From positions 94,777 through 158,776 of the forward strand of contig CAZQXK010000001.1 in NCBI GenBank assembly GCA_964597345.1: a stretch of 64,000 nucleotides of DNA, read 5' to 3'. The position numbers and the translations under genes are program-made. Source of the DNA: an uncultured Thermodesulfobacteriota bacterium. GTDB lineage: Bacteria; Desulfobacterota; Desulfarculia; JACQYL01. Shown piece after piece: positions 9,497 to 62,591 of the stretch. The stretch's first letter is position 1. Each line of letters begins with the position of its first letter. Below the pieces are notes generated by a model. It was not told where the DNA came from. It did not search any database and saw only the letters and a program-made list of their open reading frames with translations.

Positions 9497-9593
9497 GGTG
9501 TAACAAGGCAGGATGGGGTCATGGCACCCCTAATGGCGGTCGGATGGCGGCCTGCGCGTGCGCTTCCCGCAGCCTCCCGCTGGAAGAACAGGA

Positions 9594-32531: not shown

Positions 32532-34994
32532 TCACACGGCGGAGGAAAAGCCGTGCATGTCCTTGGCGTGCGGCGCCGTGTTTTCATAGTACATTTTCCA
32601 GGTTTCATTGAAGGCGTGTTCAAAGGAGCGGTCTTCCATATAGGCGCGGGCCATGCTTCCCATCCTGCGGAGCATGTCCGGATCACGAATCAGGGAATCT
32701 ATGGCTTCCCTCATGCTGCGGACGTCATGAGCGGAAACCACAAGACCCGTACGACGGGGGATCAGGTTTTCCTGGGGTCCTCCGAGATCCGTCACCACTA
32801 CGGGCAGACCCGAGGCTTGAGCTTCCAGCACGACATTTCCGAATGTATCCGTGCTGCTCGGGAAAACAAACAAATCGCAAGACGCATACAGTTTTGCCAA
32901 TGCTTCCCCCGCCAGGTATCCTGTAAAGCAATGAGGCGTACCCTCCAGTTTCTCCTGCAACAGGCTTTGATAGGGTCCTTCCCCGGCCAAAAGGAGAGAT
33001 ACGCGATTCCCGGAATCCAGGAGGCTTTTGAATACGGACACGAGCAAGTCCAGGTCCTTTTCCTTGGATATCCTCCCCACGTACAACAGTTTGAAGCTTT
33101 CCAGGTCCGTGTAGCGGCGGATGAATTGGTCATCCCGCTTGTCCGGGTGGAAACGAACGATATCGATACCCCGAGGGAACAGGCGTATCTTTTCGGGAGC
33201 GATGCCCTTGTCCGCGAGTTCCCGGCCGGTGCTTTGAGAAGGTACGTATATGGCATCCAGTTGGTCGTAGTACCAGATGACGTACTTCCACATGAGTTCT
33301 TCCAGAGAATGGTCACGCGTCAAGTACGCCGTGTATTGGGGAAGTGAGGTATGGTACGTGCCGCTGATGGGGAGCTTGAGGATCTTGGAGACGGCCAGTC
33401 CGGCCAGCCCGACCGGTCCCGGGGTCGCCGTACTGATATGGGTGAAACCCTGAACGTGACAGAATTGCAGGATATCCAGGAAAGGGGGACAGAACAGCTT
33501 CAGGAGGGGGTATTCGGGCAGATCGTACATTCCGATGGGCCTGAAATTGCGTACCCCCGGGGAGTCAAGAGATGGATCCGCGCTGCACGTGATTACGGTG
33601 AACTGTTTATGGGTTTTTCGCGCCAACGCGAGTTGCTGTTGAAGGGTCAGCGCGACTCCATTGACTTCGTAATAGGTGTCCGTGAAGTGCGCCACGTTCA
33701 TGGGCCGTATGTTTTCTCGTACAGGAGAAGAGTGCACCCCGAAACGTTCGGCCATGGTATGAGCCATCCGACGATCCCCGGCGAACAGGGAAAAGGACAC
33801 GAAGTACGGTGAAAGCAGCACGAATAAAGCACCGGCGGAGCTTGCGGACTGCAAGAGGTTAAGCAGGTTCCCTCCCGAGATCTGTCGGATCAGGTTCTCG
33901 CCGAAATGCAACAGCACGCGGTTCGATACCCTGTTCACGAATTCAAACCATGTCGATTCCGGCTCTTCTTGTTCCTGGTACCCCCAGCGGATGATACGGC
34001 GAAGCTCGGGGTCGTCTTGAATGAGCCTCTGGCCCTCCCGGCGCAACAGATGTTGAACACTGGAAGTATGGTGCGGTTCCTCGAAGTGTTTTCGAGGTTT
34101 CCAGAGCCCATAGATCTTGGACCATACGCCGCTGCGGCCCGGAGAATCTTCTTGAACCAGGAATCGGTCCAGAAACCGTAGAAACAGGTCTCTGTGCAGA
34201 TGTTTGGAGAGGTGAAATCGCTGCTTGTAGAATTGGTACGCAATGCTGTACAAATTATGGGACATTCGCAAGGGAGATGAAGGTTCTCCGTGGATTTGCG
34301 CAGTGCCTGATTGGACACCCAGGAGAAAGTCATTCAGGTCTCGAGCTCCGGGAACTTCCGTGTAGACGCGAGCCACATCCAGAGAACTGTGATCGTCGGA
34401 TCCTCCCACGAGATGTTTCATCCACGGTTCCGGAAATGCAGGCTCCAGACGATGCTTTTCGGCCAGTTTCTCGATGTGCGATGGTGTCAATGTACGAAGA
34501 ATGACATCCAGAACCTGGTTCAATAACGCCTCTCGCGCACCGTTGAGTTCAAAAGTCTTGAATAGAAGCAGGAAACGTTCAAAGTGATGAACGGTCAACC
34601 GTTCATTAATCGAGTAGAGAGGATGCGCAAGAGCGTGAACTATATTCTGAGATTGGAGATAAGTTACAAGATCTAAAATATTGTGGCGTAATTTTTGGAT
34701 CTCTGGCACGTGGTCTTCGCGGATGTCGTAGATAAGTACATGCGCTTTACATTGATCCTCGGGAAAGTATGTCGTGGTCTCCATGCTTAAGAAAGTGTCG
34801 GGCAAATGAGCGATTTCTAATGCCCCGGCTATGGTGTTGTGATCCGTTATGGTTAGCAGAGACATGCCTCTTTCCCTGGCGCGTTTCACAATACGCTTGG
34901 GTTCCGTGAAGCTTTCCGGGCAACCTAGTTTCTGAAGCACCCATGAGTTCGGCCTCTTGGAGAACTTGGAATGAACATGAAGATCCGCTTTCAT
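32532..34994 (-). CDS. fusion protein: N-terminal PHP-family phosphoesterase domain + C-terminal GT4 (group 1) glycosyltransferase
   Basis: MKADLHVHSKFS...ITDHNTIAG...HPLY are PHP metal-binding motifs. C-terminal retaining GT4 signature (EGFGNVVLEAQASGLPVVVTDLGG). 820 aa. Confidence 0.75.
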   Translation of the reverse strand: MKADLHVHSKFSKRPNSWVLQKLGCPESFTEPKRIVKRARERGMSLLTITDHNTIAGALEIAHLPDTFLSMETTTYFPEDQCKAHVLIYDIREDHVPEIQKLRHNILDLVTYLQSQNIVHALAHPLYSINERLTVHHFERFLLLFKTFELNGAREALLNQVLDVILRTLTPSHIEKLAEKHRLEPAFPEPWMKHLVGGSDDHSSLDVARVYTEVPGARDLNDFLLGVQSGTAQIHGEPSSPLRMSHNLYSIAYQFYKQRFHLSKHLHRDLFLRFLDRFLVQEDSPGRSGVWSKIYGLWKPRKHFEEPHHTSSVQHLLRREGQRLIQDDPELRRIIRWGYQEQEEPESTWFEFVNRVSNRVLLHFGENLIRQISGGNLLNLLQSASSAGALFVLLSPYFVSFSLFAGDRRMAHTMAERFGVHSSPVRENIRPMNVAHFTDTYYEVNGVALTLQQQLALARKTHKQFTVITCSADPSLDSPGVRNFRPIGMYDLPEYPLLKLFCPPFLDILQFCHVQGFTHISTATPGPVGLAGLAVSKILKLPISGTYHTSLPQYTAYLTRDHSLEELMWKYVIWYYDQLDAIYVPSQSTGRELADKGIAPEKIRLFPRGIDIVRFHPDKRDDQFIRRYTDLESFKLLYVGRISKEKDLDLLVSVFKSLLDSGNRVSLLLAGEGPYQSLLQEKLEGTPHCFTGYLAGEALAKLYASCDLFVFPSSTDTFGNVVLEAQASGLPVVVTDLGGPQENLIPRRTGLVVSAHDVRSMREAIDSLIRDPDMLRRMGSMARAYMEDRSFEHAFNETWKMYYENTAPHAKDMHGFSSAV

Positions 34995-35330: not shown

Positions 35331-35626
35331 TGTATCATTCGGCGTATTCATGTTGCCCTATCGATAGGCAAAACCCTGCGTATATTCGGACGAATCGTTT
35401 GACGAAAGTATTTCGATTTTCAGAAATCATGGTAACGAACCGATTTCGTTTCGCCGGCCTTCCGGTACGCCTTAATCCCCGGAACTTCCGGCGGGGCCTC
35501 GACCGTGAACGGGTGGAGGGACGCGGACTTGACAGCGAAAGAAGGCCGGAACATAAAGGAAAGACTCGGACCGGCGAACGGTTTGGCCACGATCGGTGAC
35601 GGCGGATCGGGAAGGAGGCGGAATTC

Positions 35627-36889: not shown

Positions 36890-36995
36890 GCGCTCTGCCC
36901 CTTCGGGAATCGGTCCGCTTTCTCCGGGCGCACGGTTTTCGAAACGCTTCATGCCCGCCGGATTCGGGCGCCCGCTTGAGCAGTGAGGATCCTTC

Positions 36996-39257
36996 ATGCG
37001 CCTTCGATGGCTTCCCTGGAAATTCATACTTCGTCAGGCCGCCCGAGCCCACGGGTTCCTGGATCCTTTGCGGATCTTTTCACAGCTCACGAAGTTCGCG
37101 CAACCTTCGGAAGTAGCGGCTCCCGTGGAGTTGATCCGGGCCGGGCTCGTCTTCCACGCACGGGGTCTGCTCAACACCAAAGCCATTCAGAATAACCTGG
37201 ACTGGATATGGCCCTTCTGGGTGCGCCGCCAGTTTGATCCCCGGGATCGAGCCTTTGTCCCGAGGGCTTTTTCCATCACACATGTAAATCTGACCAACAG
37301 AAATTGGACCGCCGTCGGGGTTCCGGATGTTCCGGTATTTCCTTTGGTGGATCCTCGAGGACTCGTGACGCCGTTCTTTGATGGTTGGTCTCTGGATTCC
37401 TGGATCGTGTCCCCGGCGGATGGGATGCTGGTTCCTTCCCAGTTGCATGACCTGGAGCAAACCCTTCAGTATGATGCGGGTCGACTGGCCGTTTGTACGC
37501 GGTGTCGCACGAAGGAATTTCAATTGGAGTCCGTCGTGGAAACGGAAATACGCGGCAACAGGCCCTATTGCAGAGTACGGTACGGCATCCGGGCGGAAGG
37601 TCTTCGTGGAGCCTGGTTTGCCCTGGCAGTGCGGCCTTATAATCCCGAAGGGGTCAGTTTTGTACATCACATCTCCGCGTCGCCCGATGGGAGGGCGTGG
37701 ACCGTGAACCATATTCCATGCATGCAGTTGGAGCCCGCCATGAAGCGTCATGTGTGCTCCACCTACAAACAGGGTGATGTCTTTCTGAGACTGCTGGAGC
37801 ACCGGGAACGTCTCGAAACGGAGTGCCATGTGGGCATGGCGTCCGGAGCGGCCCTGTACGAACTGCCGCCCCAGGGCTCCTTGGATGTCCAGGTCCGTGT
37901 GGACTTGTGTGCGGACCCTCAGACGAAGATCCCCGTTTCAACGAGAAGGGCGAACCGGAGCTGGAAGGAGGCCCTGGAAGGGATATGCGCGTTGACGGTT
38001 CCGGATCATCGAATGCGGTTTTTGTACGAGGCGGCGGTTCGGTTTATGATTCTTCATACTCCTCTGGACGTGTATCCGGGACCCTTCACGTACAAAAGGT
38101 TCTGGTTTCGGGATGCGGTTCTAATCCTCCATGCGTTGCTTTGCGTCGGTGCGCATGAACGGGTGGAGCGGGCCGTGAACCGGTTTCCCCGGCGACAGAG
38201 CGTGGCCGGCTACTTCCATTCCCAGGAAGGAGAGTGGGACTCCAATGGGCAGGTGCTCTGGTTCATGCGCAGGTTCTGCGAAGTGACCGGGCGTCCGTGC
38301 CCCACGGAATGGTTTAAGGCCTTGAAAAAAGGGGCTGCGTGGATTCTCCGCAAGAGGCTTCCGGCGGATTCGGAAGAACTCCATGCGGGGCTTCTTCCGG
38401 CGGGTTTCAGTGCGGAGCATTTCGGGAACAACGATTACTATTATTGGGATGACTATTGGGCTGTTGCCGGGTTGCGGTCTGCGGCCGCCGTCTGCGAAGA
38501 GGAAGGAAATGAACGGGAGGCGATGCGATTCCAGAAGGAGGCGGATCGGTTCATGGAAAGTGTGGAGAGATCTTTGGAACGCTCCAAGACGATTCGGCGC
38601 CACGAGGGCATCCCGGCATCTCCCTATCGCAGAATGGATTCGGGGGCCGTGGGCTCTATGGTGGCGAGCTACCCCCTCCAGTTGTTGCCCGCGGAAGAGC
38701 CGAGGCTTCTGAGTACCATCGAATATCTGCTGGAGCACTGCTTCGTCTCCGATGCATTTTTTCAGGACATGATTCATTCGGGAATGAACGTATATCTTTC
38801 GCTGCACTGCGCCCAAGTGCTTTTGAGGGCCGGAGATCCGCGATTCTATCCCATCGTGATGCGGGTGGTCGAATTGGCCTCCCCCACGGGGCAATGGCCC
38901 GAGGCCATTCACCCGCAAACGTTGGGTGGCTGCATGGGAGACGGCCAACATATGTGGGCCGCGGCGGAATGGGTCATGATGATGCGTAACCTGTTCGTGC
39001 GGGAGGAAGATCGGAAGTTGGTTCTGCTTCAAGGAATTCCGGAATCCTGGTGGAGGGCGGGGCAACTCATGGAGATCGGACCGGTGCACACCCGTTTTGG
39101 CTCACTGCACCTGAAAGTTCAACCCGGTTCGGAGGGTTTCCAAGCCTCTTGGGAGGCTTCCTGGCATTCTCCTCCCGAAGCAATGGAAATTTGTTGCATG
39201 GATGGAAAGAAGCTTTCTTTGCCGGGATTGAACCAGGGGAGTGTCTCCGTCGCTTAG
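36996..39257 (+). CDS. large six-hairpin-type glycoside hydrolase-like protein (GH63/GDE-like?), function unknown
   Basis: 753-aa soluble protein. Weak recognition only (aromatic/acidic-rich C-terminal half, e.g. GDGQHMWAAAEW). Ribosome-binding site before the ATG at 36996. Confidence 0.35.
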   Translation: MRLRWLPWKFILRQAARAHGFLDPLRIFSQLTKFAQPSEVAAPVELIRAGLVFHARGLLNTKAIQNNLDWIWPFWVRRQFDPRDRAFVPRAFSITHVNLTNRNWTAVGVPDVPVFPLVDPRGLVTPFFDGWSLDSWIVSPADGMLVPSQLHDLEQTLQYDAGRLAVCTRCRTKEFQLESVVETEIRGNRPYCRVRYGIRAEGLRGAWFALAVRPYNPEGVSFVHHISASPDGRAWTVNHIPCMQLEPAMKRHVCSTYKQGDVFLRLLEHRERLETECHVGMASGAALYELPPQGSLDVQVRVDLCADPQTKIPVSTRRANRSWKEALEGICALTVPDHRMRFLYEAAVRFMILHTPLDVYPGPFTYKRFWFRDAVLILHALLCVGAHERVERAVNRFPRRQSVAGYFHSQEGEWDSNGQVLWFMRRFCEVTGRPCPTEWFKALKKGAAWILRKRLPADSEELHAGLLPAGFSAEHFGNNDYYYWDDYWAVAGLRSAAAVCEEEGNEREAMRFQKEADRFMESVERSLERSKTIRRHEGIPASPYRRMDSGAVGSMVASYPLQLLPAEEPRLLSTIEYLLEHCFVSDAFFQDMIHSGMNVYLSLHCAQVLLRAGDPRFYPIVMRVVELASPTGQWPEAIHPQTLGGCMGDGQHMWAAAEWVMMMRNLFVREEDRKLVLLQGIPESWWRAGQLMEIGPVHTRFGSLHLKVQPGSEGFQASWEASWHSPPEAMEICCMDGKKLSLPGLNQGSVSVA

Positions 39258-39263
39258 CCGCCC

Positions 39264-39447
39264 GTTGATAACCGTATTGCGGGCAGGCCGGTACAAAAGA
39301 TGAGATGCAAGCCAGGCCCTCGACCACGCCGCCGGCGTGGCGAATCCTGAGGAACGCGCCGTACTACAACAGTACGCCGCAATGACGAAGGAGGAAGCGT
39401 CGCGCCGAGGGCGTGAAAGCAGATCGCATTTTTAAACGGCCTGTTGA
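39264..39447 (-). repeat. intergenic palindromic repeat, copy 8 (about 35-bp internal insertion)
   Basis: GTTGATAACCGTATTGCGGGCAGGCCGGTACAAAAGATGAGATGCAAGCC...GCGAATCCTGAGGAACGCGCCGTACTACAACAGTACGCCGCAATGACGAAGGAGGAAGCGTCGCGCC...GCAGATCGCATTTTTAAACGGCCTG. Confidence 0.8.
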
Positions 39448-39544
39448 CCAGCCGATCGTTCGAGAGCGGGTACACCGGGAGAGGGGCGCAAGATGCCGCC
39501 GGTTTCTTCCCTGGAGCCCTGTTTGCTCGCGACAGGAGGCCGGC

Positions 39545-40855
39545 ATGAAGATCATGATGTTCACCAATACGTTTACGCCTCACGTAGGCGGAGTGGCCCG
39601 CTCCGTGGAGCGGTTTTCCGAGGAATTTCGCGAACTGGGTCACTCCGTGGTAGTGGTGGCTCCGGAATTTGAAGACCAGCCGGAACTCGATCGGAACGTC
39701 ATCCGAGTCCCCGCCATTCAGAAATTCCACGGAGGCGACTTCTCGGTGAGCCTCCCGTTGGTTACGCTGGAAAAACTGCTCCAACACACGCGCAGACCCG
39801 ATATCATCCATTCCCACCATCCATATCTTCTCGGAGACACGGCACTGCGGCTGAGCGCCAAGATCGGAGTTCCGGTGGTATTCACCCACCACACCATGTA
39901 CGAGCAGTATACCCATTACGTGCCGGGGGACTCACCGGCCATGAAGCGGTTCGTAGTCGAACTGGCTACACGATACGCCAATATGTGTTCCCGTGTCATT
40001 GCCCCCAGTGAAAGCGTAAGAACCGTGTTGAGGGGTCGAGGAGTAGATGCTCCCATTGCGATTATTCCCACGGGAGTGGACGTGGACCGTTTTGCCGCGG
40101 GGGACGGGGAAAGGGTGCGGTTACGATACGGTATACCTCGTGGAGCCTTCGTCGTGGGCTATCTCGGTCGCCTCGCTCCTGAAAAGAACCTGGATTTTTT
40201 GGCTCGAGCCGTGGCTCACTTCCTGAGGTTGCGCGCCGATGCCCGGTTTCTCGTGGGAGGATACGGTCCGTCCTCGAAACACATTCAAACGGCATGCGCG
40301 AAAGAAGGCGTTCTGCATCGCGTGCATTTTGCGGGACGTCTAAAGGGTGGAGATGTGGTGGATGCGTATCATGCCATGGATGTGTTCGCCTTCGCGTCCA
40401 AAACGGAAACCCAGGGTATGGTTTTGGCGGAAGCCATGGCGGCGGGGATACCCGTCGTGGCTCTGGATGCTCCCGGCGTACGGGAAGTGGTGCAAAGCGG
40501 TCGGACCGGCGTCTTGTTGCGCTCGGAGGGCCTGAAGGAGTTCCGTGATGCGCTGGGATGGGTGGAAGAATGCCTTGCGCGGAATCCGAAAGCTTTCAAA
40601 AAGGCCTGTGTGGATACGGCGCGGTCCTTTTCCATGCGGAACTGTGCTCTTGCCGCAATAGCCTTGTATCATGAGGCCATCAGCCGGGGCGCCGCCGAAA
40701 GGCCGTTCGACATGAGCCGTTGGGAGTCCTTGTTGCGTTCCCTCCGGAGAGAATGGGAATTGTGGAACAGCCGGTTGTTGTCTCTGGCCGATGCCCTGCT
40801 GAGCGACGAGGCGCGTCTCGGTGAGGATGAGGAGCAACGGGAGGATGATTCGTGA
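39545..40855 (+). CDS. GT4 (group 1) glycosyltransferase
   Basis: Two-Rossmann GT-B layout. C-terminal EX7E-type motif region (TETQGMVLAEAMAAGIPVVALDAPGVREVV). Confidence 0.75.
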   Translation: MKIMMFTNTFTPHVGGVARSVERFSEEFRELGHSVVVVAPEFEDQPELDRNVIRVPAIQKFHGGDFSVSLPLVTLEKLLQHTRRPDIIHSHHPYLLGDTALRLSAKIGVPVVFTHHTMYEQYTHYVPGDSPAMKRFVVELATRYANMCSRVIAPSESVRTVLRGRGVDAPIAIIPTGVDVDRFAAGDGERVRLRYGIPRGAFVVGYLGRLAPEKNLDFLARAVAHFLRLRADARFLVGGYGPSSKHIQTACAKEGVLHRVHFAGRLKGGDVVDAYHAMDVFAFASKTETQGMVLAEAMAAGIPVVALDAPGVREVVQSGRTGVLLRSEGLKEFRDALGWVEECLARNPKAFKKACVDTARSFSMRNCALAAIALYHEAISRGAAERPFDMSRWESLLRSLRREWELWNSRLLSLADALLSDEARLGEDEEQREDDS

Positions 40856-40885
40856 TACGCCGCGAGAGCCTCCTCTTACCAACCC

Positions 40886-40975
40886 GTTGAAAAAGCGTAT
40901 TTCGCGCAGGCCGGCGAAAAACGCGATCTGCCGTCACGCCGACGGCGTCAGTGTGCATGCCGGTTTTCAACCGGC
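40886..40975. repeat. degenerate, shortened copy 9 of the palindromic repeat
   Basis: GTTGAAAAAGCGTATTTCGCGCAGGCCGGCGAAAAACGCGATCTGCCGTCACGCCGACGGCGTCAG...GGTTTTCAACCGGCC retains both terminal motifs but lacks most of the arms. Confidence 0.5.
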
Positions 40976-40978
40976 CCG

Positions 40979-41926
40979 TTAAGGGTGTTGTTCCAAATAG
41001 CACAGCAGCCGCCGATACAGGCGTTCCGTGTCTTCTTTACGGCACAATTCGGAGCCCGGAGTCATGACGGCGGCGGAACCGGCGGCAAGGCCGTAACATG
41101 CGGCCTCGTGCACGGAAGCTCCCCGGGCCAAGTGGAAGACGATACCGGCCACCATACTGTCGCCAGCGCCCACCTTGCTCCGAATGGGAACGGTGGGGGC
41201 CCGCAATCGCCGCACGCCTTCGTTCGAAGCCAGGATGATTCCAGCGGCTCCCAGGGAGACCACCACCACTTCGGTACTCCCGCGATTCACCAGTTCCAGG
41301 GCGGCTCGTTCCTGATCCGTCTCCTCGGAAAGCGGATCTCCCACGAGTTCCTTCAGTTCTCTCAGGTTCGGTTTGATCAGGAACACCGCCTCCCGAAGTG
41401 TTTCACCGAAGGCTTTCCCCGAGGTGTCCAGTACGACCCGAATTCCCTTGCTTCGAATCCCGCGTACGGCTTGCGCATAGAAATCCGCCGGCGCGTTGCG
41501 GGGGAGACTTCCGCTCAGCACCAGGATCCCCCCGTGCTGAAGATTCTTGGGAAGCAGGTCCAGGCAGGCCTTCCACTCGGCCTCCTGAAGCACCGGCCCC
41601 GGAGTTCCGAAACGAAATTGCCGCTCGCTGGATCGTTCGAACACGATGAAGTTTTCACGGGTCCAGCTCTCCGTTGGCACGGATGCCCGGCTAATGCGCT
41701 CCTCGTCCAGAAGCGCCCCGAGAATTCCGCCGGTGGGACCACCTGTGGGGTAAAGGGCCATGGATTCGCCGCCGAGCTTGCGGATGGCCCTGGACACATT
41801 GATGCCGCCCCCTCCGGGCTCGTAAACGGCTTCGTCACAACGCAATTTCCGTTCAGCCACCACCTGGTCGATGGCCGTATTAATGTCCACGGCCGGGTTC
41901 ATGGTGAGCGTCACTATGGTTTCCAT
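40979..41926 (-). CDS. PfkB-family carbohydrate kinase (1-phosphofructokinase/tagatose-6-phosphate kinase-like)
   Basis: DTSGKAF...PNLRELKEL...GAGDSMVAGIV (PfkB signature 2). Confidence 0.8.
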   Translation of the reverse strand: METIVTLTMNPAVDINTAIDQVVAERKLRCDEAVYEPGGGGINVSRAIRKLGGESMALYPTGGPTGGILGALLDEERISRASVPTESWTRENFIVFERSSERQFRFGTPGPVLQEAEWKACLDLLPKNLQHGGILVLSGSLPRNAPADFYAQAVRGIRSKGIRVVLDTSGKAFGETLREAVFLIKPNLRELKELVGDPLSEETDQERAALELVNRGSTEVVVVSLGAAGIILASNEGVRRLRAPTVPIRSKVGAGDSMVAGIVFHLARGASVHEAACYGLAAGSAAVMTPGSELCRKEDTERLYRRLLCYLEQHP

Positions 41927-42348
41927 CCTGCCCTACCCCTTTCTCAAACGGAGATTCCGGTCCCCATTCAGGGGCGGATCCCCATCTCCTGTTCACTCTG
42001 GGCGATCCGAAGAGATCCTGTCACGGGTATATGAATCCGCTTCCGCCCATGATACGGGATGGGAGTCCGCAAGGCAAACGCCCCTGGGGTCCGCCTAAAA
42101 GAACACACAAACGATCATGCACTCCGCCGGAAGGAACGCGGCGGGACCCTGCGAAGAAACTCTTATGCAATGCGCATGGGTTTTCAAAGGGCGGTTGCGG
42201 GATTATAATAAAAAAGATCATAGTCGGCCGCAGAGGCGCTGAGCTGGAAGCCGCCCGGGCCAATCTATCGGGCGCGAGGCGTGTGCGGTGCGGAGCGGCC
42301 ACTGGAACTCGATCAACCCAATCCATTTTGAATGAGAGGAGGATTCCC

Positions 42349-45826: not shown

Positions 45827-47064
45827 TTACAGTTCAATACGGTCGCCCGCTCCATAGAGCACGGCGAGCATCAGGGTCAGGTACTCGCGCAGGTGCCTCG
45901 TCAGGAGGAAGTTCTCGCGGACGAATTGCTTCGCCTTGCTTCCCATTTCTTCCAGTTTGTCCCGGTGTTTCAAGAGATACCGGATGCGGAGGGCCGCACC
46001 CTCCGGAGTGCTTGCCAGGAATCCCGTGTGGTGATTGATCACCTGCAACCGGATTCCCCCGGTGTTGCCTCCGATGACGGGTTTTCCCTTCCACATGGCT
46101 TCGGTGACGGTGAGTCCGAAGCCTTCCCGGATGGATTTCTGGAGCACAATGTCGGAAGCCCGTTGGAGGGCATTGACCGTCACGTGGGCATCCGGCGGCA
46201 GTAGGAGCAGGTGAATGTCGGGATCGTCTCCGGCGGCGGCTTTGACCTCACGGAAGACTTCTTCTCCTTCGGGATCGTCGGAAGCTCCTCCCCCCGCCAG
46301 CACCAATTGGGCGGGTACGTATTCCTTGATCAGGCGGTAAGCCTGTACGACGCCCAAGGGATCCTTGAACCGGTCGAAGCGGGAAATCTGCGTGAGAATG
46401 GGACGATCGGGATCCAATTTCCACTGGGTGTACGCCGCGTCCATTTCGTTCGGTTGCAGGTCCCGGTTCTTGTCACTCAGTGGGTCGATGCTGGGAGCGA
46501 TGAGGTACAATGGATGCGGCAAAGGTTGGGCAAACGCGGACAAAGACCAGATGCTCGCGTCGTATTCGATCACAAACCGGCGCAGATATTTCCACACCTG
46601 CCGGTACGGGCGACTCACGTCGATGTGGCAACGCCAGATCCATTTGCCTTTCCGTTTGGGAAAGTGGGAAAGCAGCGGGGCGGGTTGGGGATCGTGGATG
46701 AACACCATGTCCGCCTGTTCGAGACATTCGCCGAGCCGCCCGGCGTTTTCACGGACGGTGCTTTCATAGACGTCCAGGAGATGTGCGGGAATATCCACCA
46801 CGTTTCCCTGAAGCGCGTTGTGGAAGTTTTTGGTGCACTGATAGAACTCCGCTTCACCCGTAATGATTTCCCATACCGCGCGAAGGCCGAGTTCCTCCTT
46901 GAGGGGGATGAGACGGTGCAGGATTTCCGCCACGCCGCCCCCTTCACGGGTGGAGTTGATATGCACCACCTTCTTGCCTTCCAACGGCTTGGCCAGCTGC
47001 CTCAGGTGTTCGATGACCGCTTTTCCGACAATTTCCGCGTATTGCTCCAGCAGAGTGGTCATTA
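45827..47064 (-). CDS. treT: trehalose synthase TreT-like GT4 glycosyltransferase (nucleotide-sugar:glucose trehalose-forming)
   Basis: N-terminus MTTLLEQYAEIVGKAVIEHLRQLAKPLEGKKVVHINSTREGGGVAEIL and FHNALQGN match the TreT family pattern. GT4 C-terminal domain. Start overlaps the upstream stop. Confidence 0.6.
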
Positions 47065-47718
47065 CGGAATGCCTTTCTGATTGAATGCCCGGATGATGCC
47101 TTCGAGGTCCCGCCGCATCTCCGAAAGCGAAGTGAAATAGGGATCCAGCGCCGCTATACGCTTGGCCAGGGGCGCGTATTCCTCTCCAAGTCCCATGAGC
47201 CATTCGCTGAAATCGTTGTTGCCGTGCTCGGTTCTTCTCCGAGCGTCGATGAAATGGTAGAAAATGCTTCCCAGGGACATCCGGCCTATAAACTCGGACA
47301 GGTCGCCGGGATGGGTAATCTGTACGGCGGTATCCAGCACCACGATCTGGGAGCGAATGAAATGAAAGCGCTGACTCGCACGCATCCAGCCCAGGATTTC
47401 ACTTTCATCCAGAACTTCCTCGATCACCTCCACCAATTCGTGTCGGAGATCCTCCAGATCCGGATATTCCGTGGGATCGATGATTCCCAGGCGCTCGGCC
47501 AGGCGCGCTTCATGCAAGCCGTGCCATGCCCAGGAGGCGAAATCGTTCTGGTATTCCGGATCGTCGAACCGCGGTTCCAGCAGCCCGCCCCAGAAATGGT
47601 AATAAATGCACCCCGGATGGGTGCTTTCCAATCGATCCCTCAATTCACGCAGGGTTTGCGCGCGTTCCCCCGTGGCTACGGCAATGAGGGCGCAGTCTTT
47701 GATAGCGAAAGGTTCCAT
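47062..47718 (-). CDS. conserved hypothetical protein co-transcribed with treT (DUF5752-like?)
   Basis: 218-aa soluble ORF, translationally coupled to treT (TAATGA). Family recollection uncertain. Confidence 0.4.
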   Translation of the reverse strand: MEPFAIKDCALIAVATGERAQTLRELRDRLESTHPGCIYYHFWGGLLEPRFDDPEYQNDFASWAWHGLHEARLAERLGIIDPTEYPDLEDLRHELVEVIEEVLDESEILGWMRASQRFHFIRSQIVVLDTAVQITHPGDLSEFIGRMSLGSIFYHFIDARRRTEHGNNDFSEWLMGLGEEYAPLAKRIAALDPYFTSLSEMRRDLEGIIRAFNQKGIP

Positions 47719-53114: not shown

Positions 53115-54949
53115 TCAAACCTCCGATGCGTACAGTGCCAAGCTCCATGCCCCCGGGGTGACTTCGTTTCCATCCCACAATCGTTCCGGCAGCCGAGTAC
53201 CGGGACCACCCCAGGTTTCCGCGGAGGAATCCAGAATTTTACGCCACTCCCCATCGGGAAGGGACACGAGGAACGGGACCGGTGTGTCGTTGAAGTTGAA
53301 AAGAATGAAACTCTGAGCGCCCGCTCGATACCATCGGCGTAATGTAAGTATTCGTTCCACTTCGTACGTTGTTACCTCAATAGCGTGTTTGTCGGGATGT
53401 TGCAAGGCGGGCAGGGTCTTTCGGATTCGAATGAGTTCTTTATAGAAGCGAAACAGCATTCCATGTTTTCCTTGATCACGGAGGCGCAGGTTCAGCCGGG
53501 ATTTCCGCATAGTGTCGGGATCTTGTGGATCTGGCGGCGTATCATGCCAGTTGAAGGCCTGGAATTCCTGCCTGCGGCCTTTCCGGACCGCGGCCACGAG
53601 ATCCGCATCGGAGTGATCCACAAAATACAGGAAAGGGGCTTCTTCTCCGTATTCCTCGCCCATGAACAGCAACGGGACGAAGGGAGACAACAGAAGGGCC
53701 CCCGCGGCCAGCTTCAACGCTTCAAACGGAACCAGCAGGGAAAGCCGTTCCCCGAGCATCCGGTTACCCACCTGATCGTGATTCTGAATACACACGACGA
53801 ACTGCCGGCCCGGCCGATCCAGGGAGGAACGTCCGTGGCGGCGGCGGCGATAGGCGGAGTAATCCCATGAATACACGAAACCTTCGGAATAGGCCTTGCC
53901 GAGATGTTCCATTTTCCCGAAGTCCAGATAATACCCGGAGGTCTCTCCGGTCAGCAACGTGTGGACGGCATGGTGGAAATCGTCGCTCCACTGGGCGTCC
54001 AGTCCGAACCCGCCGACTTCTCTGGGCCGCAGGATTCGGGGGTCGTTCAGATCGCTTTCCGCGATCAGAAGCCAGGACTTGTTTTCGGCCCGGGAGACTT
54101 CGGACACTTTTTCGGCCAACTCCTCCAGAAAGGGTTTAGCACTGGAATCGAAGATGCCGTGAACGGCGTCGAGTCGCAACGCGTCCACGTGGTAACGGCG
54201 GAACCAATGCAGGGCGTTCTCGATGAAGAAATTCCGGACATGATCCGAAAGAGGACCGTCGAAATTGAGGGCTTCCCCCCAGGGCGTCCGGTACGTCTCG
54301 GTAAAGTAGGGACCGAATTCCCTGAGGTAGTTCCCTTCAGGACCCAAGTGGTTGTATACGACATCCAGAATTACGGCGAGGTCGAGCGCATGGCATGCGT
54401 TGACAAGACGTTTGAGACCCGAGGGACCTCCGTATGAGTCTTGAACGGCGAAAGGATACACGCCGTCGTAACCCCAGTTTCGTATGCCTGGGAACTGAGC
54501 CACCGGCATGAGTTCCACGGAGTTAACCCCCAGTTCTCTCAGCTCCTCGAGGTGGTCGATCACGGCGTCGAACGTACCTTCTGGGGTGAAGGTCCCCACA
54601 TGCAATTCGTAGGCGATCATGTGGTCCAGGGAGGAGATCCCCTTCCAATGGCCGTCCGTCCAGTGGAATTCAGCATGATCCACCACCCGGGATTCCCGGT
54701 GCACGCCGTAGGGCTGTTCATGGGAAGCGGGATCCGGCCGTTCCCCTTCGTCGTCCAGTACGTACCGGTATGTGGCCCCGGGAAAGACGTTATCCAGTAG
54801 AATCCGCCAGTACCCCTTTGGATCCCGGTTCATGGGCGCCCTGCGCGCTTCCGGTTCCAGGATCTTGAGAGTAACATTCCGGCAGGAAGGCGCCCATACG
54901 GTGAATTGACAATTTCCCTTTCCAAAATAGTCGGTTCCGATGTTCATGC
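53115..54949 (-). CDS. treZ: malto-oligosyltrehalose trehalohydrolase (TreZ), GH13 with N-terminal CBM48
   Basis: FTVWAPS...YELHVGTFT...GYDGVY...DVVYNH...LRLDAVH...GFGLDAQWSDDFHH...QNHDQVGNR GH13/TreZ motifs. Confidence 0.8.
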
Positions 54950-55110
54950 GTAGGTTCCCATTCGGTAGCCGGTTCCGTCGCACAAAGACGCCGCACTGAC
55001 CGCGCACGTGCTTCGACGTCGACCCACCGGTTTGTTGAGCAATTGCGTAAGGCATTCCCAAAAGCGAAGATTCAAGGCGTATCCACGGGCTCTGCCCCAC
55101 GGCGCGTTCA

Positions 55111-57571: not shown

Positions 57572-57650
57572 GTTTCGCCCGAATCCGTTGTCCCGCCCAC
57601 ACCAAACCCAGCATCTCCGGACCCATCGCCGCGAGGTCGTTCCCTGGCGG

Positions 57651-57735
57651 GCTTATGAAAGACGGAATCCACCGTGTTGCGCTTCACTCTTTGCGTCGGC
57701 GATTCGTACGTAATCCTGTCTTTCCACCGGCTGCC
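57651..57735 (+). repeat. partial (half) copy 11 of the palindromic repeat
   Basis: ...GACGGAATCCACCGTGTTGCGCTTCACTCTTTGCGTCGGCGATTCGTACG... matches the left arm only. Confidence 0.5.
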
Positions 57736-58149
57736 ATGGGTCCCAGCGTAATTCCAACTTAGCATGCCGATGGAGTCATGACAAACAGAAGGTCTGACAG
57801 TCCGTCAATAAACAGCATTGCAGGCAGGGCCGTCCATGAACACCGTGTGCGATGGGACCCTTATAGGCCACACTCGCAGGCCCTCGCCGGCTCCACACTC
57901 CGTCGCCCCCGAAAGACCCTCCGGCAACCCTTTTTCCCCTCGAAACGAAGGACCCCTCTTCGATTCCACGGAATCTCTTCACAATGGTCACACTCCCGAA
58001 ACCCTTAATTCGGACAGTTACGGTATAGGAAAGCCGTTGGGCCGGGGAGCGATTCATGCTCCCATCCAGTGGAAGTCCGCGTTTCCGGGGAAAAGGGTGG
58101 CTGGAAGAAGCGGTCGGACTCGAACATTCCCACGGAATACAGCTTGGAT

Positions 58150-60585
58150 ATGGGAGGGAGAACGCATTTGGAGCATCATCGGTCGTTGGCGCACCTTCTT
58201 CGCATTGCTTCGGGGAACGGGCGGATTCTTTCGATGCCGTTTTCAGGCGAGGATGTGACTGCGGGGGGGGAAGATGAAATGCAGGCGGCGGTGGAAGGAG
58301 ACCGGGCGGCGGTGGATCTTTCCTGCGCCATCGAATCCTCCGGTTTTTTCCGGAACCTGGTCAAGAGGCATCGTCGGGGAGAGATGCCCAAATGCGCCAT
58401 AACGGATCTGGAGGAATTCCTCAACAACAACCCGTCCCAAGTCTGGGAAAACAGTTGGGTGCGTTTTCCCGCCGGCGTCCTGAGCCGTTTCGCGGAAGAG
58501 ACGTTTCGGGAGGACCTGGCGGCCGACAAGCGAACCCCGCATGGTGGATCACGAAGAGACGCAGAGCAATTCGTGTTTCAACGAAATCAGGAAACCTGGT
58601 ACCGGCTTCCCGTAAGCTACCTCATGAAACTCGCCCTGGCGGAGCTTGTGGGTTGTGATCCCGGGATGCCCGTTCTAGTCCGGCAAACGGCCCGGACCGT
58701 CATGGCCCATTTCGTCAACGACAACACATCGCCCGAAACGGTTTCATTTTACGTGGCGCCGTTCCGGGCGGCGGAAGGTTTAGGCCGTGGGTTGGCTCGG
58801 GAGGCGGCCGAGCGGTATCTCTTGAGTCAGTTGCTCGTTCAGTACGCCGCCATACGATTCCGTCTCAGCGAAAACGGACAGACTCCCCTAGTCTACTATG
58901 CTCCTTTACCTCCCTTGAGGCAGAAGCGCCTCAATGAGTTGATCTCGGACAGCTTCTATCGTGAGTTGTTCATGAGCCCGTGCCTGAGCGGGTGGGATCG
59001 GGGCGAGGAAAAACACAGGTATATGCATTTGTGTCATATGGTGCTGAGCCGAAGTCAGTTGAACGCCGTAGCCAAGTTGCGGGAAGCCGGGATCATCACC
59101 AGCAATTTGGTAGTGTTGCCCAATATCTCCAACGTAAGCCTGGCCAACAACGGAACGCACATCAGTTTAGGAAGCCGGATGTTGGGAGCCCTGCTGTCCG
59201 ATCCTTCTTCCGGGTTTACGAGCCGGCATGAGAAGTACTTTGGGGACCTTGCCATCAAAATCATGGAGCATTTTGTCCCTCTGTTCGTCGGAACGTATAC
59301 GGCGGCCCCCTTTCGGTTGGCTTTCGAGGATTTTCATCCGGAGCGCGTCCTGGGATTTCTTCCTCATGAGTTGGATTATACGCATGTGCGCATGATCTGG
59401 CGTCGATGGCGGAAGAAGGCGTCCATAAGCGTCCTGGGAAGACCGCTTACCCCCTTCGGCCCTCCGGTGCTGGACCGTTGGGTGAGCCGGATTTTGGGCC
59501 TCACAGGGGACTGGGTGGCGGACTTCCGTTTGATGGACTACCTGGTGTGTCTGTTAAGTACGGACCGGTGTCCCGCATTGAATGGCGAGGTCGGGAATCA
59601 GGAGCGTTTGAAAAAGGATCTTTCGGATCAGGGCGTTTTCGATACGCAGATGGCCATGTATCTCCTTGTTCGCCAACGACTGTTTGCCGAGAAAGGGTTT
59701 TCGGGGTTTGAAGGCAGGTACTACAGTTCCTTTGTTTCTTTCTTCGAGGATTTGGGAAGAGCGGTTGAAATGCAGGCTATACTAACGGCCTTGTGCTTCA
59801 AGTATATGGTCTCTGGACGCGTCTCCCATGCCTTGATTCCGGACGCGCCCTGGGTGGAAAGCGAACGAAGGCAAGTGGTTTTCGGCACCGCCGTCGGCAT
59901 TCCTACTTTCTTTGTACGCAAGAACACGGGAAATCTGTTTCTGAAACGCATCATCGGAAAAACGCCTCAAGTGCGTTCCAGCACGCGGTATCCAGGCGCT
60001 TGGAGAGTGCGCAACCTGGAGTACCGGAAGGCCCTGGTGGACCTCCTCGACGAGGAAGCATCCGATTTGGCGGAGACTTTCGGGATTCAAGAAGGGTTTC
60101 AAGACCTGAGGCGACGTCTGGAGCGTCCCCATGAATACTCGGTAGCGGGAAGAATCACCCAACACATTCTGGAGGAGTTGAACGTCCGGGATCCGTTGGA
60201 CAGCTCTGCCGCCGAATTCAATCAAGCCGCGGAGCGAGTGTATCGGGAAATCCTCCGAAGAACACACCTTCGGGAAGCCTTTGAATTTTTCAAATCGGAT
60301 GTTCGAAAGTTGCAGGCGTCTCAATTCACCGGCGGCTCGTCTTTACGGGAGACACTCCGACATATTCTGGGTGAGCGGGACGGCGTCCGGATGGTGGAGG
60401 ATGCTGTACGGGTCGTCGAAGAAGGAAGGTGTCCGGAAGCGGATTTAGCCCGACTGATTCAATTACTGCTCCTGGCGGTTCATATGCACGCATCAAGGAC
60501 TAAGCGATGGAGAGAGGACTTCCTTGGAGGCAGATCGAGTGAAACATCAGTATATCGAGAGGAACTCCAACTCCGTACGGGATGA
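58150..60585 (+). CDS. large conserved hypothetical protein (about 812 aa), upstream of psd. Start uncertain (ORF open from 58069)
   Basis: Long uninterrupted ORF with codon usage typical of the window. No motif recognised. Confidence 0.5.
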   Translation: MGGRTHLEHHRSLAHLLRIASGNGRILSMPFSGEDVTAGGEDEMQAAVEGDRAAVDLSCAIESSGFFRNLVKRHRRGEMPKCAITDLEEFLNNNPSQVWENSWVRFPAGVLSRFAEETFREDLAADKRTPHGGSRRDAEQFVFQRNQETWYRLPVSYLMKLALAELVGCDPGMPVLVRQTARTVMAHFVNDNTSPETVSFYVAPFRAAEGLGRGLAREAAERYLLSQLLVQYAAIRFRLSENGQTPLVYYAPLPPLRQKRLNELISDSFYRELFMSPCLSGWDRGEEKHRYMHLCHMVLSRSQLNAVAKLREAGIITSNLVVLPNISNVSLANNGTHISLGSRMLGALLSDPSSGFTSRHEKYFGDLAIKIMEHFVPLFVGTYTAAPFRLAFEDFHPERVLGFLPHELDYTHVRMIWRRWRKKASISVLGRPLTPFGPPVLDRWVSRILGLTGDWVADFRLMDYLVCLLSTDRCPALNGEVGNQERLKKDLSDQGVFDTQMAMYLLVRQRLFAEKGFSGFEGRYYSSFVSFFEDLGRAVEMQAILTALCFKYMVSGRVSHALIPDAPWVESERRQVVFGTAVGIPTFFVRKNTGNLFLKRIIGKTPQVRSSTRYPGAWRVRNLEYRKALVDLLDEEASDLAETFGIQEGFQDLRRRLERPHEYSVAGRITQHILEELNVRDPLDSSAAEFNQAAERVYREILRRTHLREAFEFFKSDVRKLQASQFTGGSSLRETLRHILGERDGVRMVEDAVRVVEEGRCPEADLARLIQLLLLAVHMHASRTKRWREDFLGGRSSETSVYREELQLRTG

Positions 60586-60604
60586 ACGCCTTTTCGGAGA
60601 CGGA

Positions 60605-61561
60605 ATGGTTCGACTACTCTACTCCGGCCGGTTCGAAGACACGCATTTTGTCATGAAGGCGCTTTCCGGGGTACGGATGACCCGCTTGCTGGCCCTGCTC
60701 AATTTTGATTCGACCCTGACGACCCGGTTCACGGGGAGCCGCAGGTTCATGGAAGGGTTGGGGGTGAATTGCGAGGAATGTCTGGAAAGCGTGCGTACCC
60801 TGAACACGGCCAGAAAAATCTTCGAGCGGAAGATCCGCTATTGGGAATGTCGTCCCATGGCGCCGGATGCCGAGCACGTGACGGCCCCCGCGGACTCGCG
60901 TCTCTTGTTCGGTTCCTTTAGGGAAACCTCGCTGGTGTATGTGAAAGAGAAATTCTTCGACGTGGGGGAACTGGTCGGAGCGGATAATCCTCTTTGGGTG
61001 GACGCGTTCAATGCAGGTGATTTTGCCGTATTCCGACTGACCCCGGATAAGTACCACTACACGCACACCCCGGTGGCGGGCCGAGTATTGGATGTATATG
61101 AACTTCCGGGAGGATACCATTCCTGCAATCCGGGCGCCGTGCTCTCCTCCGTCCGGCCGTTTTCGAAAAACCGGCGTCTGGTGACCGTTTTGGACACGGA
61201 TGTGGCGGCGGGGACGTGCGTGGGTCTCGTGGCCATGGTGGAAATCGTTGCTTTGATGGTCGGAGGCATCCAGCAATGCTACAGTCCGACCCGGTATGAC
61301 ATGCCCCGAACGGTAAGACCCGGCATGTTCCTGCAAAAGGGATGCCCCAGGAGCCTGTTTCGGCCTGGTTCAAGTACGGTGGTGGTGCTGTTTCAGCCCG
61401 GCCGGATGGAATTCTGCGAAGATCTTCGATCCAACCGGCGTGCCGCCCACGTCTCCAGTCGGTTCAGTCTGGGGCTGGGGGAACCTCTGGTGGAAACCGA
61501 AGTACGGGTGCGCTCTACTATCGGAAGGGCGATACGGATGGGGGATAAGCGTGAGCAATGA
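60605..61561 (+). CDS. psd: phosphatidylserine decarboxylase proenzyme
   Basis: FRLTPDKYHYTHTPVAGRVLDVYELPGGYHSCNPGAVL / E. coli Psd [41 protein letters not shown]. Pyruvoyl-forming cleavage motif GSST(V) (KGCPRSLFRPGSSTVVVLF / KGQEMGRFKLGSTVINLF). Alternative ATG at 60524 would overlap the upstream gene by 62 nt. Confidence 0.8.
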   Translation: MVRLLYSGRFEDTHFVMKALSGVRMTRLLALLNFDSTLTTRFTGSRRFMEGLGVNCEECLESVRTLNTARKIFERKIRYWECRPMAPDAEHVTAPADSRLLFGSFRETSLVYVKEKFFDVGELVGADNPLWVDAFNAGDFAVFRLTPDKYHYTHTPVAGRVLDVYELPGGYHSCNPGAVLSSVRPFSKNRRLVTVLDTDVAAGTCVGLVAMVEIVALMVGGIQQCYSPTRYDMPRTVRPGMFLQKGCPRSLFRPGSSTVVVLFQPGRMEFCEDLRSNRRAAHVSSRFSLGLGEPLVETEVRVRSTIGRAIRMGDKREQ

Positions 61562-62591
61562 GGGATTTGTTCTCACCTTGGCGGTGTTGTTTGCGGTGGT
61601 TCTCCCCGTGGGGTTCCGGATGTTGCCCCGGGAGCGCTGGCAGATTCTGGCCTCCATCCCGATAAGGAAAGAGACCGGGGAACACTGGCACGGGATCAAT
61701 GTAACCTTTTACGGTGTTTTGACCGCCACGGCGTGCACGGGGGCTTCCGGGTTGTTTGTCCTGATGACCGCTGCGTGCGGGATCCAAGCCCGTGAAGTGA
61801 TCTGGTTTCTCATTCCGCTGCTGGCGGTCTGCATACCTTCATCCCGTTGGGTGGCCCGTATGGTGGAGGGCAAAGGGGATACGTTCACCGTCCAGGGGGC
61901 CATACTGACGGGTACGATCCTGGCTCCCCTGCTTTTTCTCGGGCTGGATCATGCCGCGGGACTTGCATTACCCGTAATTCCCCTTCTATCCGCGGCTTCC
62001 GTATCCCTGGTTATGGGAGAGGGACTGGGACGTCTGGCGTGCATCAGTTATGGATGCTGCTATGGGAAGCCCCTGAGCGCCTTTTCTCTCCCGTTAAGGA
62101 AGGTCCTTCGCCCTCTTGGGTGCACCTTCTACGGGAAGCGGAAGAAGATCGCTTATGAAGGGCGTCTGGAGGGAGAGAAAGTCGTGGCCGTTCAGGCGAT
62201 CACTTCGGTCTTATACGTCTGCACGGCCCTGGCTACGCTGTACCTCTTCCTGGAAGGCCGGTTTCTTCTCTCCTGGGTCGTGGCCGTGTTCGTATCCCAG
62301 GTTTGGAGACTCTTTTGCGAATTTCTCAGGGCTGATTACCGTGGGGAAGGGCGCTTTTCGGGGTACCAGATCATGGCGCTTTTTTTGTGCGCCGCAACGT
62401 GTGCGGCGGCCGCGCTTCTTCCTAACGAAAGTTACGGAAACCCCGTGGCGGCGTTCGGGCTTCGCACTCTGTTCAGCTTGGGACCGCTGATAGCTCTCCA
62501 GGGGCTCTGGGTCCTGGTGCTGTTGTACACGGGGTTAAGCCGGGCGACCTTTTCGGGGCTGACGTTCCATGTGCGTCCCGATCGGACGTGA
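61551..62591 (+). CDS. polytopic membrane protein, prolipoprotein diacylglyceryl transferase (Lgt)-like
   Basis: GTG start overlapping the psd stop (GTGAGCAATGA). Seven or more TM helices. GRLACISYGCCYGKP resembles the Lgt signature G-R-x-[GA]-N-x-x-N-x-E/C-x-x-G region. Assignment tentative. Confidence 0.4.
   Translation: MSNEGFVLTLAVLFAVVLPVGFRMLPRERWQILASIPIRKETGEHWHGINVTFYGVLTATACTGASGLFVLMTAACGIQAREVIWFLIPLLAVCIPSSRWVARMVEGKGDTFTVQGAILTGTILAPLLFLGLDHAAGLALPVIPLLSAASVSLVMGEGLGRLACISYGCCYGKPLSAFSLPLRKVLRPLGCTFYGKRKKIAYEGRLEGEKVVAVQAITSVLYVCTALATLYLFLEGRFLLSWVVAVFVSQVWRLFCEFLRADYRGEGRFSGYQIMALFLCAATCAAAALLPNESYGNPVAAFGLRTLFSLGPLIALQGLWVLVLLYTGLSRATFSGLTFHVRPDRT

Follow-up and report, generated by a model that had tools for sequence, protein, structure and literature searches.

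Two described bacterial systems provide points of comparison for the locus considered here. The gpgSDF operon of Pseudomonas aeruginosa, which directs the synthesis of glucosaminyl-phosphatidylglycerol, was described in 2025 through expression in Escherichia coli and lipidomics (PMC12713373). GlnA4 of Streptomyces, an enzyme of the glutamine synthetase (GS) fold, makes gamma-glutamylethanolamide and is a precedent for the ligation step proposed below (PMC9397018). Here we describe a cassette of three genes at positions 58150-62591 of a 64,000-nucleotide stretch of DNA (the window) from an uncultured Thermodesulfobacteriota bacterium. It encodes a large soluble protein with the predicted fold of a glutamate-cysteine ligase (GCL), a protein of the phosphatidylserine decarboxylase (PSD) family, and a polytopic membrane protein related to the prolipoprotein diacylglyceryl transferase Lgt. 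Coordinates are positions in the window unless they follow the handle of another locus (L001 and so on), and evidence on residues and on carrier organisms comes from homologue searches, alignments and a predicted structure. We tentatively propose, giving it appreciably less than even weight, that the cassette builds a modified membrane-lipid head group by decarboxylation of phosphatidylserine (PS) followed by ATP-dependent amide ligation.

A conserved operon of three overlapping genes

Three successive, co-directional open reading frames (ORFs) occupy 58069-62591 of the forward strand, the first two overlapping by 47 nt and the last two by 11 nt (Table 1). The first of these overlaps, in which the PSD-like gene shares at least the final 47 nt of the large gene (60539-60585), went unmentioned in a first-pass annotation made from the bare sequence. 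The same annotation had placed the GTG start of the third gene inside GTGAGCAATGA, across the psd stop, and this proves correct: the sequence, at 61551-61561, holds both the GTG of the Lgt-like gene and the TGA of psd within the 11-nt overlap. The Lgt-like start is further supported by a database twin (P0121) with 100% identity over 100% of its length. For the large ORF the candidate starts are GTG 58069 (838 aa), ATG 58150 (811 aa), TTG 58168 (805 aa) and ATG 58234 (783 aa), and public gene calls for the identical protein use either TTG 58168 (JGI) or ATG 58234 (the NCBI twin, P0001). A start upstream of 58234 is plausible because homologues carry approximately 47 poorly conserved residues ahead of their first conserved motif, LPFSxxDxTAG. 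An unusually long gap of about 660 nt lies 5' of the ligase gene (window 57572-58233). An Rfam search of this gap for riboswitches or other RNA elements gave no credible match, no sigma-70-like promoter match was found in it, and promoter-like and terminator-like sites within it were not commoner than in shuffled sequence.

Table 1. Positions in the window of the cassette genes, their conserved motifs and one possible accessory gene
Feature	Position	Strand	Description
Large ligase-like gene	58150..60585	+	Soluble protein of ~783-811 aa; predicted GCL/YbdK/PafA fold and ~280-aa C-terminal helical domain
GGEDEMQ (family motif GSExELQ)	58264..58284	+	First beta-strand (8-15 in model); E13/E15 proposed metal ligands
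LANNGTHISLGS	59140..59175	+	Most conserved motif; N306, G307 and H309 invariant; strand 308-314 in model
GFEGR	59704..59718	+	G491, E493 and R495 invariant; strand 491-496 in model
PSD-like gene	60539..61561	+	GTG start; 340 aa (database twin P0241); alternative start TTG 60524
PADSR	60887..60901	+	D119 equivalent to E. coli PSD Asp90; P117, A118 and D119 invariant
YHYTHTP	61052..61072	+	H173/H176 equivalent to E. coli His144/His147; R166, just upstream, equivalent to Tyr137
GSST	61367..61378	+	Autocleavage/pyruvoyl-forming motif, G277-S278-S279-T280
Lgt-like gene	61551..62591	+	346 aa, polytopic, ~7 transmembrane segments; GTG start
GRLACISYGCCYGK	62028..62069	+	Lgt signature region; R143 and G154 equivalents kept, N149 equivalent Y/F
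WRLFCEFLRADYRG	62304..62345	+	R253/E257 equivalent to E. coli Lgt R239/E243
PHP-like and GT4 glycosyltransferase gene	32532..34994	-	Possible accessory gene; 820 aa; 23 kb from the cassette

When each species was represented by a single genome, the ligase was located in at least 589 genomes, and its cultured carriers include Geobacter pickeringii, Geobacter sp. SVR and Trichlorobacter thiogenes. Eighty loci were kept and 83 related loci were used for the clustering of neighbouring genes; the 76 counted for the PSD-like gene are those with room for it. The 80 loci belong to Geobacterales, Desulfuromonadales, Syntrophales, Syntrophobacterales, Desulfobacterales, Desulfomonile, Ca. Brocadia (Brocadiales), Nitrospinae and Blastocatellia. 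A PSD-like gene lies directly 3' of the ligase gene in 76 of 76 loci, and an Lgt-like gene lies within the locus in 68 of 71 and directly adjacent in 63 of those 71. Clustering of the flanking ORFs revealed no other gene that is comparably conserved; the further partners found were a GT4 glycosyltransferase, a 720-aa secreted protein, a DUF2062 protein, a phospholipase C and a DksA-like zinc finger, each restricted to particular lineages. Because the order recurs in 76/76 and 63/71 independent loci from several phyla, the arrangement is not due to chance, and the three genes constitute one conserved operon. The first-pass annotation had treated them as one unit, named conservation of the neighbourhood across genomes as the check to be made, and held the module to be undescribed. 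The order is indeed kept across phyla, and the full-text literature searched contains no paper on the cassette or description of this combination of genes.

Such conservation bears directly on the possibility that the three genes have no joint function, an unrelated gamma-glutamylcysteine ligase having merely come to lie beside an ordinary housekeeping psd and a spare lgt. Public databases do name two of the genes phosphatidylserine decarboxylase and prolipoprotein diacylglyceryl transferase, and the catalytic residues of both products are intact. Against this, the adjacency counts above hold across distant phyla while the flanks differ, the reading frames overlap, the PSD-like and Lgt-like proteins score far under the cut-offs of their equivalogs, and in Ca. 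Wunengus a canonical lgt coexists with the cassette. We consider simple co-location highly improbable.

A predicted ligase fold in the large protein

The large protein is not named by any profile library. Searches of Pfam and NCBIfam at E up to 0.1, and of PADLOC, returned nothing for it; among 42 family members not one matched the GCL, GCS2 or Pup_ligase models even when E was relaxed to 10, and a profile of the family found no match among PDB sequences. An exhaustive hidden Markov model search of 1.84 billion cluster representatives returned 887 matches, each of them a member or a fragment of this one family, and none provided a link to a family with a name. The close homologues number more than 2890 (54-61% identity), all unnamed or "hypothetical", and no transmembrane segments were found in the protein.

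Structure prediction gives a clearer picture. While a first AlphaFold model, built on 38 close homologues, was poor over residues 266-500 (pLDDT, the predicted local distance difference test, 72.5), a second from a more diverse alignment reached a pLDDT of 92.2 and a predicted template-modelling score (pTM) of 0.93. This predicted model has the GS/GCL catalytic fold. In structure comparison it scored 17.1 with YbdK 1tt4 (326 of 354 residues aligned), 16.9 with GshA 3nzt, 16.4 with GshA 1v4g and 15.8 with GshAB 3ln7, and Foldseek likewise ranked GshAB and GshA at the top. Values were lower for PafA 4bjr (15.2) and Dop 9cku (14.8), for eukaryotic GCLs (12-13) and for glutamine synthetases (approximately 8.5). 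The nearest structural relatives share 9-13% identity with the protein, and its C-terminal helical domain of about 280 aa has no structural match.

Several residues are strongly conserved within the family. E13 and E15 are invariant in one alignment (A1) and at least 90% conserved in a second (A3), and E72, within a WENSW motif, is invariant or nearly so; together with H309 and E493-x-R495 these lie on predicted strands. H309 is proposed as the metal-binding histidine of the GS/GCL strand 'G-x-H-x-H/S-x-G/S', and E493-x-R495 as the E-x-R motif that contacts metal and ATP phosphate. We infer that E13/E15, E72, H309 and E493/R495 sit at the Mg2+/ATP sites of the superfamily, with GSExELQ corresponding to the GxExE motif of GCL, YbdK and PafA. 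On the strength of the model, the large protein is best described as a putative new family of ATP-dependent carboxylate-amine ligases. The first-pass annotation had called it a large protein with no recognisable motif, which still holds for Pfam and NCBIfam, where it belongs to no known family, and which gives way at the level of the predicted fold.

Another possible reading is a protein or peptide lipidation system. Here a PafA-like ligase would join a protein carboxylate, either a C-terminus or a glutamate side chain, to the amine of phosphatidylethanolamine (PE) produced by the PSD-like enzyme, or would modify a dedicated lipoprotein diacylglycerylated at cysteine by the Lgt-like enzyme. 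We regard this as quite unlikely.

A separate subfamily of phosphatidylserine decarboxylase

The second protein was recognised in the first-pass annotation as psd from its GSST motif and alignment, an identification that Pfam, alignment to the E. coli enzyme and individual residues all uphold. It scores 125.6 bits with PS_Dcarbxylase (PF02666; gathering score 22, E 2.6e-36) and aligns to E. coli PSD (7cnw/6l06) at E 1e-10. Its scores with the NCBIfam psd equivalogs are all below cut-off (115.6 bits against 371, 77.9 against 111.75, 71.3 against 307 and 48.1 against 285), as are those of the cassette copy from Geobacter pickeringii. Because these scores fall far under every psd equivalog cut-off, the cassette psd is, as judged from sequence, a separate PSD subfamily and a paralogue of the characterised psd. 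A search of 5.8 billion proteins returned 3991 relatives, the best 120 of which form a tight group of 330-345 residues with 53-61% identity. One metagenomic protein of 506 aa (P0242) that had the appearance of a PSD fusion was rejected as such; it is no domain fusion and instead contains about 170 residues duplicated internally in tandem, which probably reflects either an artefact of assembly or a duplication of recent date.

In E. coli PSD, the phosphate of PE touches Tyr137, Ser166 and the backbone of Val167, and the Tyr137 position is occupied by Arg in 15% of PSDs (residue roles from Cho et al., PMC7952604). The equivalents of these contacts are retained in the cassette subfamily. In an alignment of 28 members R166 and C196 are invariant and S195 is at least 90% conserved, and the same alignment shows an invariant PAD together with YHYxH and PGSST, G277, S279 and T280 of the cleavage site being invariant. 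The N-terminal region has the usual PSD layout, and the alpha-chain is longer, with an invariant SRFSxGFGxPLVET motif. With both catalytic and phosphate-contact residues retained, the protein has the look of a pyruvoyl decarboxylase that is active and would still recognise a head group of the phosphoserine type. The gene is not paired with pssA, as was observed in the first-pass annotation: no pssA adjoins it here, none belongs to the gene clusters that recur around the 83 related loci, and a scan of 30 larger ORFs in approximately 1-47 kb of the window revealed neither pssA nor a second psd nor an lgt.

These residues also bear on whether the substrate is a lipid at all. In a soluble small-molecule pathway, leading to a thiol, a polyamine-like compound or a cofactor, the ligase would form a gamma-glutamyl amide, the PSD-like enzyme would act on a free amino acid and the Lgt-like protein would serve as anchor or exporter. 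GCL and YbdK do use soluble substrates, the PSD family includes members that act on free tryptophan, such as PsiD (PMC11929908), and a review links the family to agmatine production in fungi (PMC12904898). The cassette enzyme, by contrast, retains both the N-terminal region of PSDs and the residues that contact phosphate, its conserved polytopic partner of the Lgt family has invariant lipid-binding arginines, and the recurrent neighbours of the cassette are lipid enzymes. We therefore judge a soluble pathway to be very unlikely.

An Lgt paralogue in the membrane

The third protein has approximately seven hydrophobic, transmembrane-like segments and is a distant member of its superfamily. Its match to Pfam LGT is marginal (27.8 bits, gathering score 24.9), some members of its family have no precomputed LGT match, and it scores 34.2 bits with the NCBIfam Lgt equivalog, for which the cut-off is 334. 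The search gave 1133 relatives of 345-354 residues and 39-50% identity. Comparison of profiles by hhalign aligned it to canonical Lgt with a probability of 91%, placing the GRLACISYGCCYGK region over canonical GRIGCFLNGCCFGK. The corresponding residues of E. coli Lgt are R143, N149, G154, R239 and E243, of which R143 and R239 are the phosphate-binding arginines. In an alignment of 32 cassette members, GRLACISxGCCYGK and WRxxSExLR are invariant; the invariant positions are G160, R161, A163, C164, I165, S166, G168, C169, C170, Y171 and G172 in the signature and W252, R253, E257, R260, D262, R264 and G265 in the WR motif.

The first-pass annotation had drawn attention to a GRxAxxxxGCCYG segment. 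The segment is present, as stated, and is invariant in the alignment, and it is not peculiar to the cassette: the canonical Lgt of Ca. Wunengus carries GRIGCFLNGCCFGK. The three cysteines of GRLACISxGCCYG were considered as a new catalytic feature and rejected on the same grounds, as that canonical Lgt passes TIGR00544. In Ca. Wunengus (Brocadiales; contigs L002 and L003) the canonical lgt lies upstream of the cassette at a distance of 2 kb. In L002 the product of this separate gene, an Lgt of 282 aa, scores 153.2 bits with TIGR00544 (cut-off 118.9), while the cassette copies of L001 and L002 score 19.7 bits or give no match, the Wunengus copy being the one without a match. Because Wunengus has both a cassette and a separate lgt that passes TIGR00544, and as judged by these scores, the cassette protein is probably best regarded as an Lgt-superfamily paralogue and not as the housekeeping lgt; the possibility left standing in the first-pass annotation, that it might be the only lgt orthologue of its genome, finds no support in the equivalog score or in Wunengus. 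On the same Wunengus contig (L002:4995-6202, minus strand) the canonical lgt is directly followed by panD, which encodes another pyruvoyl-dependent decarboxylase, 2 kb from the cassette.

An Lgt-family partner invites a pathway centred on cysteine, whose product would be a phosphorus-free thioether amino-lipid. Free cysteine or gamma-Glu-Cys would receive, on its thiol, a diacylglyceryl group moved from phosphatidylglycerol (PG) by the Lgt-like protein, the PSD-like enzyme would decarboxylate S-diacylglyceryl-cysteine as an analogue of PS, and the GCL-like ligase would gamma-glutamylate the amine of cysteine or cysteamine. This has a certain economy. Cysteine is the sole substrate common to canonical GCL (Glu and Cys) and canonical Lgt (Cys thiol and PG), an S-substituted cysteine mimics an O-substituted serine, and all three enzymes would retain the chemistry of their families; the phospholipase C and lipid-type GT4 found in some cassettes would also fit a remodelling of phospholipid to non-phospholipid. 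Set against it are the PS/PE phosphate contacts kept by the PSD-like enzyme (R166, S195 and the C196 backbone), which a thioether lipid without phosphate would not engage, the lack of any report of such a lipid, and the linkage of the Lgt-like gene, which is looser than that of the other two (63/71 adjacent). A thioether product is unlikely on balance.

A proposed route to a modified lipid head group

We return to the reading in which PS is decarboxylated and the resulting amine is ligated. The PSD-like enzyme would cleave itself at GSST to generate its pyruvoyl group and would decarboxylate PS, or a close analogue, to a lipid-bound primary amine of the PE type, both steps being suggested by its conserved residues. 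The soluble GCL-fold ligase, from its fold and its metal and ATP motifs, would then use ATP to activate an amino-acid carboxylate and join it to this amine. By analogy to GCL, YbdK and PafA the carboxylate would most likely be the gamma-carboxylate of glutamate, yielding an N-aminoacyl (gamma-glutamyl-type) aminophospholipid. The role of the Lgt-like protein is the least certain; it may transfer diacylglyceryl from PG to a nucleophile on the head group, or may handle or translocate the product in the membrane. We infer all of the substrates and the order of the steps. The two-step scheme is favoured because a decarboxylase that would produce an amine is invariably paired with a ligase that would consume an amine and a carboxylate. 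The first-pass annotation had proposed a lipid head-group module based on acyl or diacylglyceryl transfer and decarboxylation. Its single conserved unit stands, and the GCL fold shifts the chemistry to decarboxylation and ATP-dependent amide ligation.

Several points weigh against this scheme. No lipid of the proposed kind is known from the carriers in the literature searched. The model assigns no necessary role to the Lgt-like protein, which is a weak point, and canonical Lgt works at the periplasmic face of the membrane, while PSD and a soluble ATP-dependent ligase belong to the cytoplasmic face. The identity of the carboxylate would follow only from the nearest structural relatives, which are as distant as noted above. 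The carriers may lack a separate housekeeping psd/pssA pair; Geobacter probably has a canonical one. Finally, PsiD, although of the PSD family, acts on a free amino acid (PMC11929908).

Lineage-restricted neighbours and other genes of the window

The common theme of the recurrent neighbours is membrane lipids. One of them is represented in the window by the 820-aa GT4 protein (Table 1), which has a weak PHP-like region at its N-terminus and a GT4 domain at its C-terminus. Full-length orthologues (42-49% identity) lie beside or inside the cassette in 22 of 83 loci from four orders or phyla, and between the PSD-like and Lgt-like genes in three (L024, L031 and L035, including Trichlorobacter). 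The best NCBIfam match is the GlcNAc-phosphatidylglycerol synthase GpgS, at 131.9 bits and below the cut-off of 480. The window copy may be a fourth component of the system encoded 23 kb away. In Geobacter-type loci, the genes immediately 3' of the Lgt-like gene encode a DUF2062 membrane protein and a Zn-dependent phospholipase C (L005:10940-11887, L008:10328-10843 and 10 to 11 others). In loci of the Smithella/Syntrophales type, a DksA/TraR zinc-finger protein of about 117-137 aa is encoded between the PSD-like and Lgt-like genes (L041, L045, L054, L059, L065, L072, L079 and L081); the copy scanned with Pfam, in L023 (10578-10931), lies just downstream of the Lgt-like gene. This protein may be a dedicated regulator. 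A protein of approximately 720 aa that begins with a signal-like segment and belongs to no family of Pfam or NCBIfam recurs at L001:1209-3365, L031:9274-11481, L035:7503-9701 and L043:9292-11457, is found inside the cassette in Trichlorobacter, and has no homologue in the window.

Divergent from the 820-aa GT4 gene is a gene (35627-36889, forward strand) for a 420-aa protein resembling cysteinyl-tRNA synthetase that reaches neither the cysS threshold (a score of 282, with 340 required) nor that of the mycothiol ligase MshC (189, with 485 required), and that could be a cysteine-adding ligase and not a tRNA synthetase. A second GT4 gene (39413-40855, forward strand) has alpha-monoglucosyl-diacylglycerol synthase as its best match, at 144.7 bits and below cut-off; it is flanked by a 753-aa ORF (36996-39257) and a 349-aa ORF (40985-42034), both on the forward strand and without a Pfam or NCBIfam family. 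Taken together, the genes at 32532-42034 look like a glycolipid or thiol-glycoside cluster. The window also contains a TreT-like trehalose gene (45827-47203, reverse strand), an ORF taken to be TreZ-like from its sequence alone (53115-55100, reverse strand) and a HEPN AbiU2-like protein (9558-10295, forward strand). No relation of the trehalose and HEPN genes to the cassette is seen.

Significance and comparison with known systems

It is possible, though doubtful, that the cassette makes an undescribed class of membrane lipid, be it an N-(gamma-glutamyl) aminophospholipid or a thioether-linked diacylglyceryl-cysteine or diacylglyceryl-cysteamine lipid. If so, such a lipid would be widespread in anaerobic sediment bacteria, namely Geobacter, syntrophs, sulfate reducers and anammox bacteria. 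The ligase would to our knowledge be the first enzyme of the GCL/GS superfamily to act on a membrane lipid, and the Lgt-like protein might be the first of the Lgt family with a non-protein acceptor. What appears to be new at the level of sequence is the undescribed combination of subfamilies from known superfamilies, together with an 800-aa ligase family that has no profile model and that, at 54-61% identity between phyla, is among the better conserved proteins of its carriers. These carriers are environmentally important and include metal-reducing Geobacter, syntrophic Smithella and Syntrophobacter, sulfate reducers and anammox bacteria. Lipids from organisms of this kind can be used as markers of the environment, and a new head group would alter the reading of both their lipid profiles and their membrane charge. 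The cassette also carries a warning for annotation, since two of its genes are named "phosphatidylserine decarboxylase" and "prolipoprotein diacylglyceryl transferase" despite failing the equivalog thresholds.

Each cassette protein departs from its nearest characterised relatives in a distinct manner. The large protein shares a predicted fold with GCL and YbdK (GCS2; PDB 1tt4, 1v4g and 3nzt) at 9-13% identity and without a profile match; compared with YbdK it is about twice the size, with large insertions and the C-terminal helical domain, and is always beside a PSD-family gene. It scores lower with PafA and Dop (PDB 4bjr and 9cku) than with GCL and YbdK, the cassette lacks genes for Pup, the proteasome and Mpa, and it is found in other taxa; judged by fold together with a Pup/proteasome context, it does not belong to the pupylation systems. 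None of the three proteins matches an anti-phage defence system in PADLOC. With E. coli Psd (7cnw/6l06; NCBIfam PRK00723 type) the PSD-like protein shares PF02666, the GS(S/T) site and the equivalents of Asp90, His144, His147 and the phosphate contacts, and it differs from bacterial Psd in its longer alpha-chain, the SRFSxGFGxPLVET motif and a ligase partner in place of pssA. The third protein has the polytopic build of Lgt (TIGR00544, PF01790), the GR...G..YG signature, the WR..SE.LR motif and the equivalents of R143, G154, R239 and E243; unlike Lgt, it is about 65 residues longer, has a different N-terminus, scores 0-34 bits with the equivalogs and has F/Y at the N149 position.

At the level of the pathway, GlnA4 of Streptomyces coelicolor is a GS/GCL-superfamily ligase that gamma-glutamylates the amine of ethanolamine, as is proposed here (PMC9397018), although it belongs to the GS type I fold family, uses soluble, free ethanolamine in a catabolic role and has no PSD or Lgt partner. 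By analogy of organisation, gpgSDF is the closest conceptual analogue of the cassette. There the head group is modified by glycosylation and deacetylation, in place of the decarboxylation and amide ligation proposed here, and by enzymes of other families. Both are nonetheless three-gene operons that act, or would act, on a phospholipid head group by adding a charged group, both include as third gene a membrane protein with an unproven role, and GpgS itself is the closest match of the GT4 that accompanies the cassette in 22 loci.

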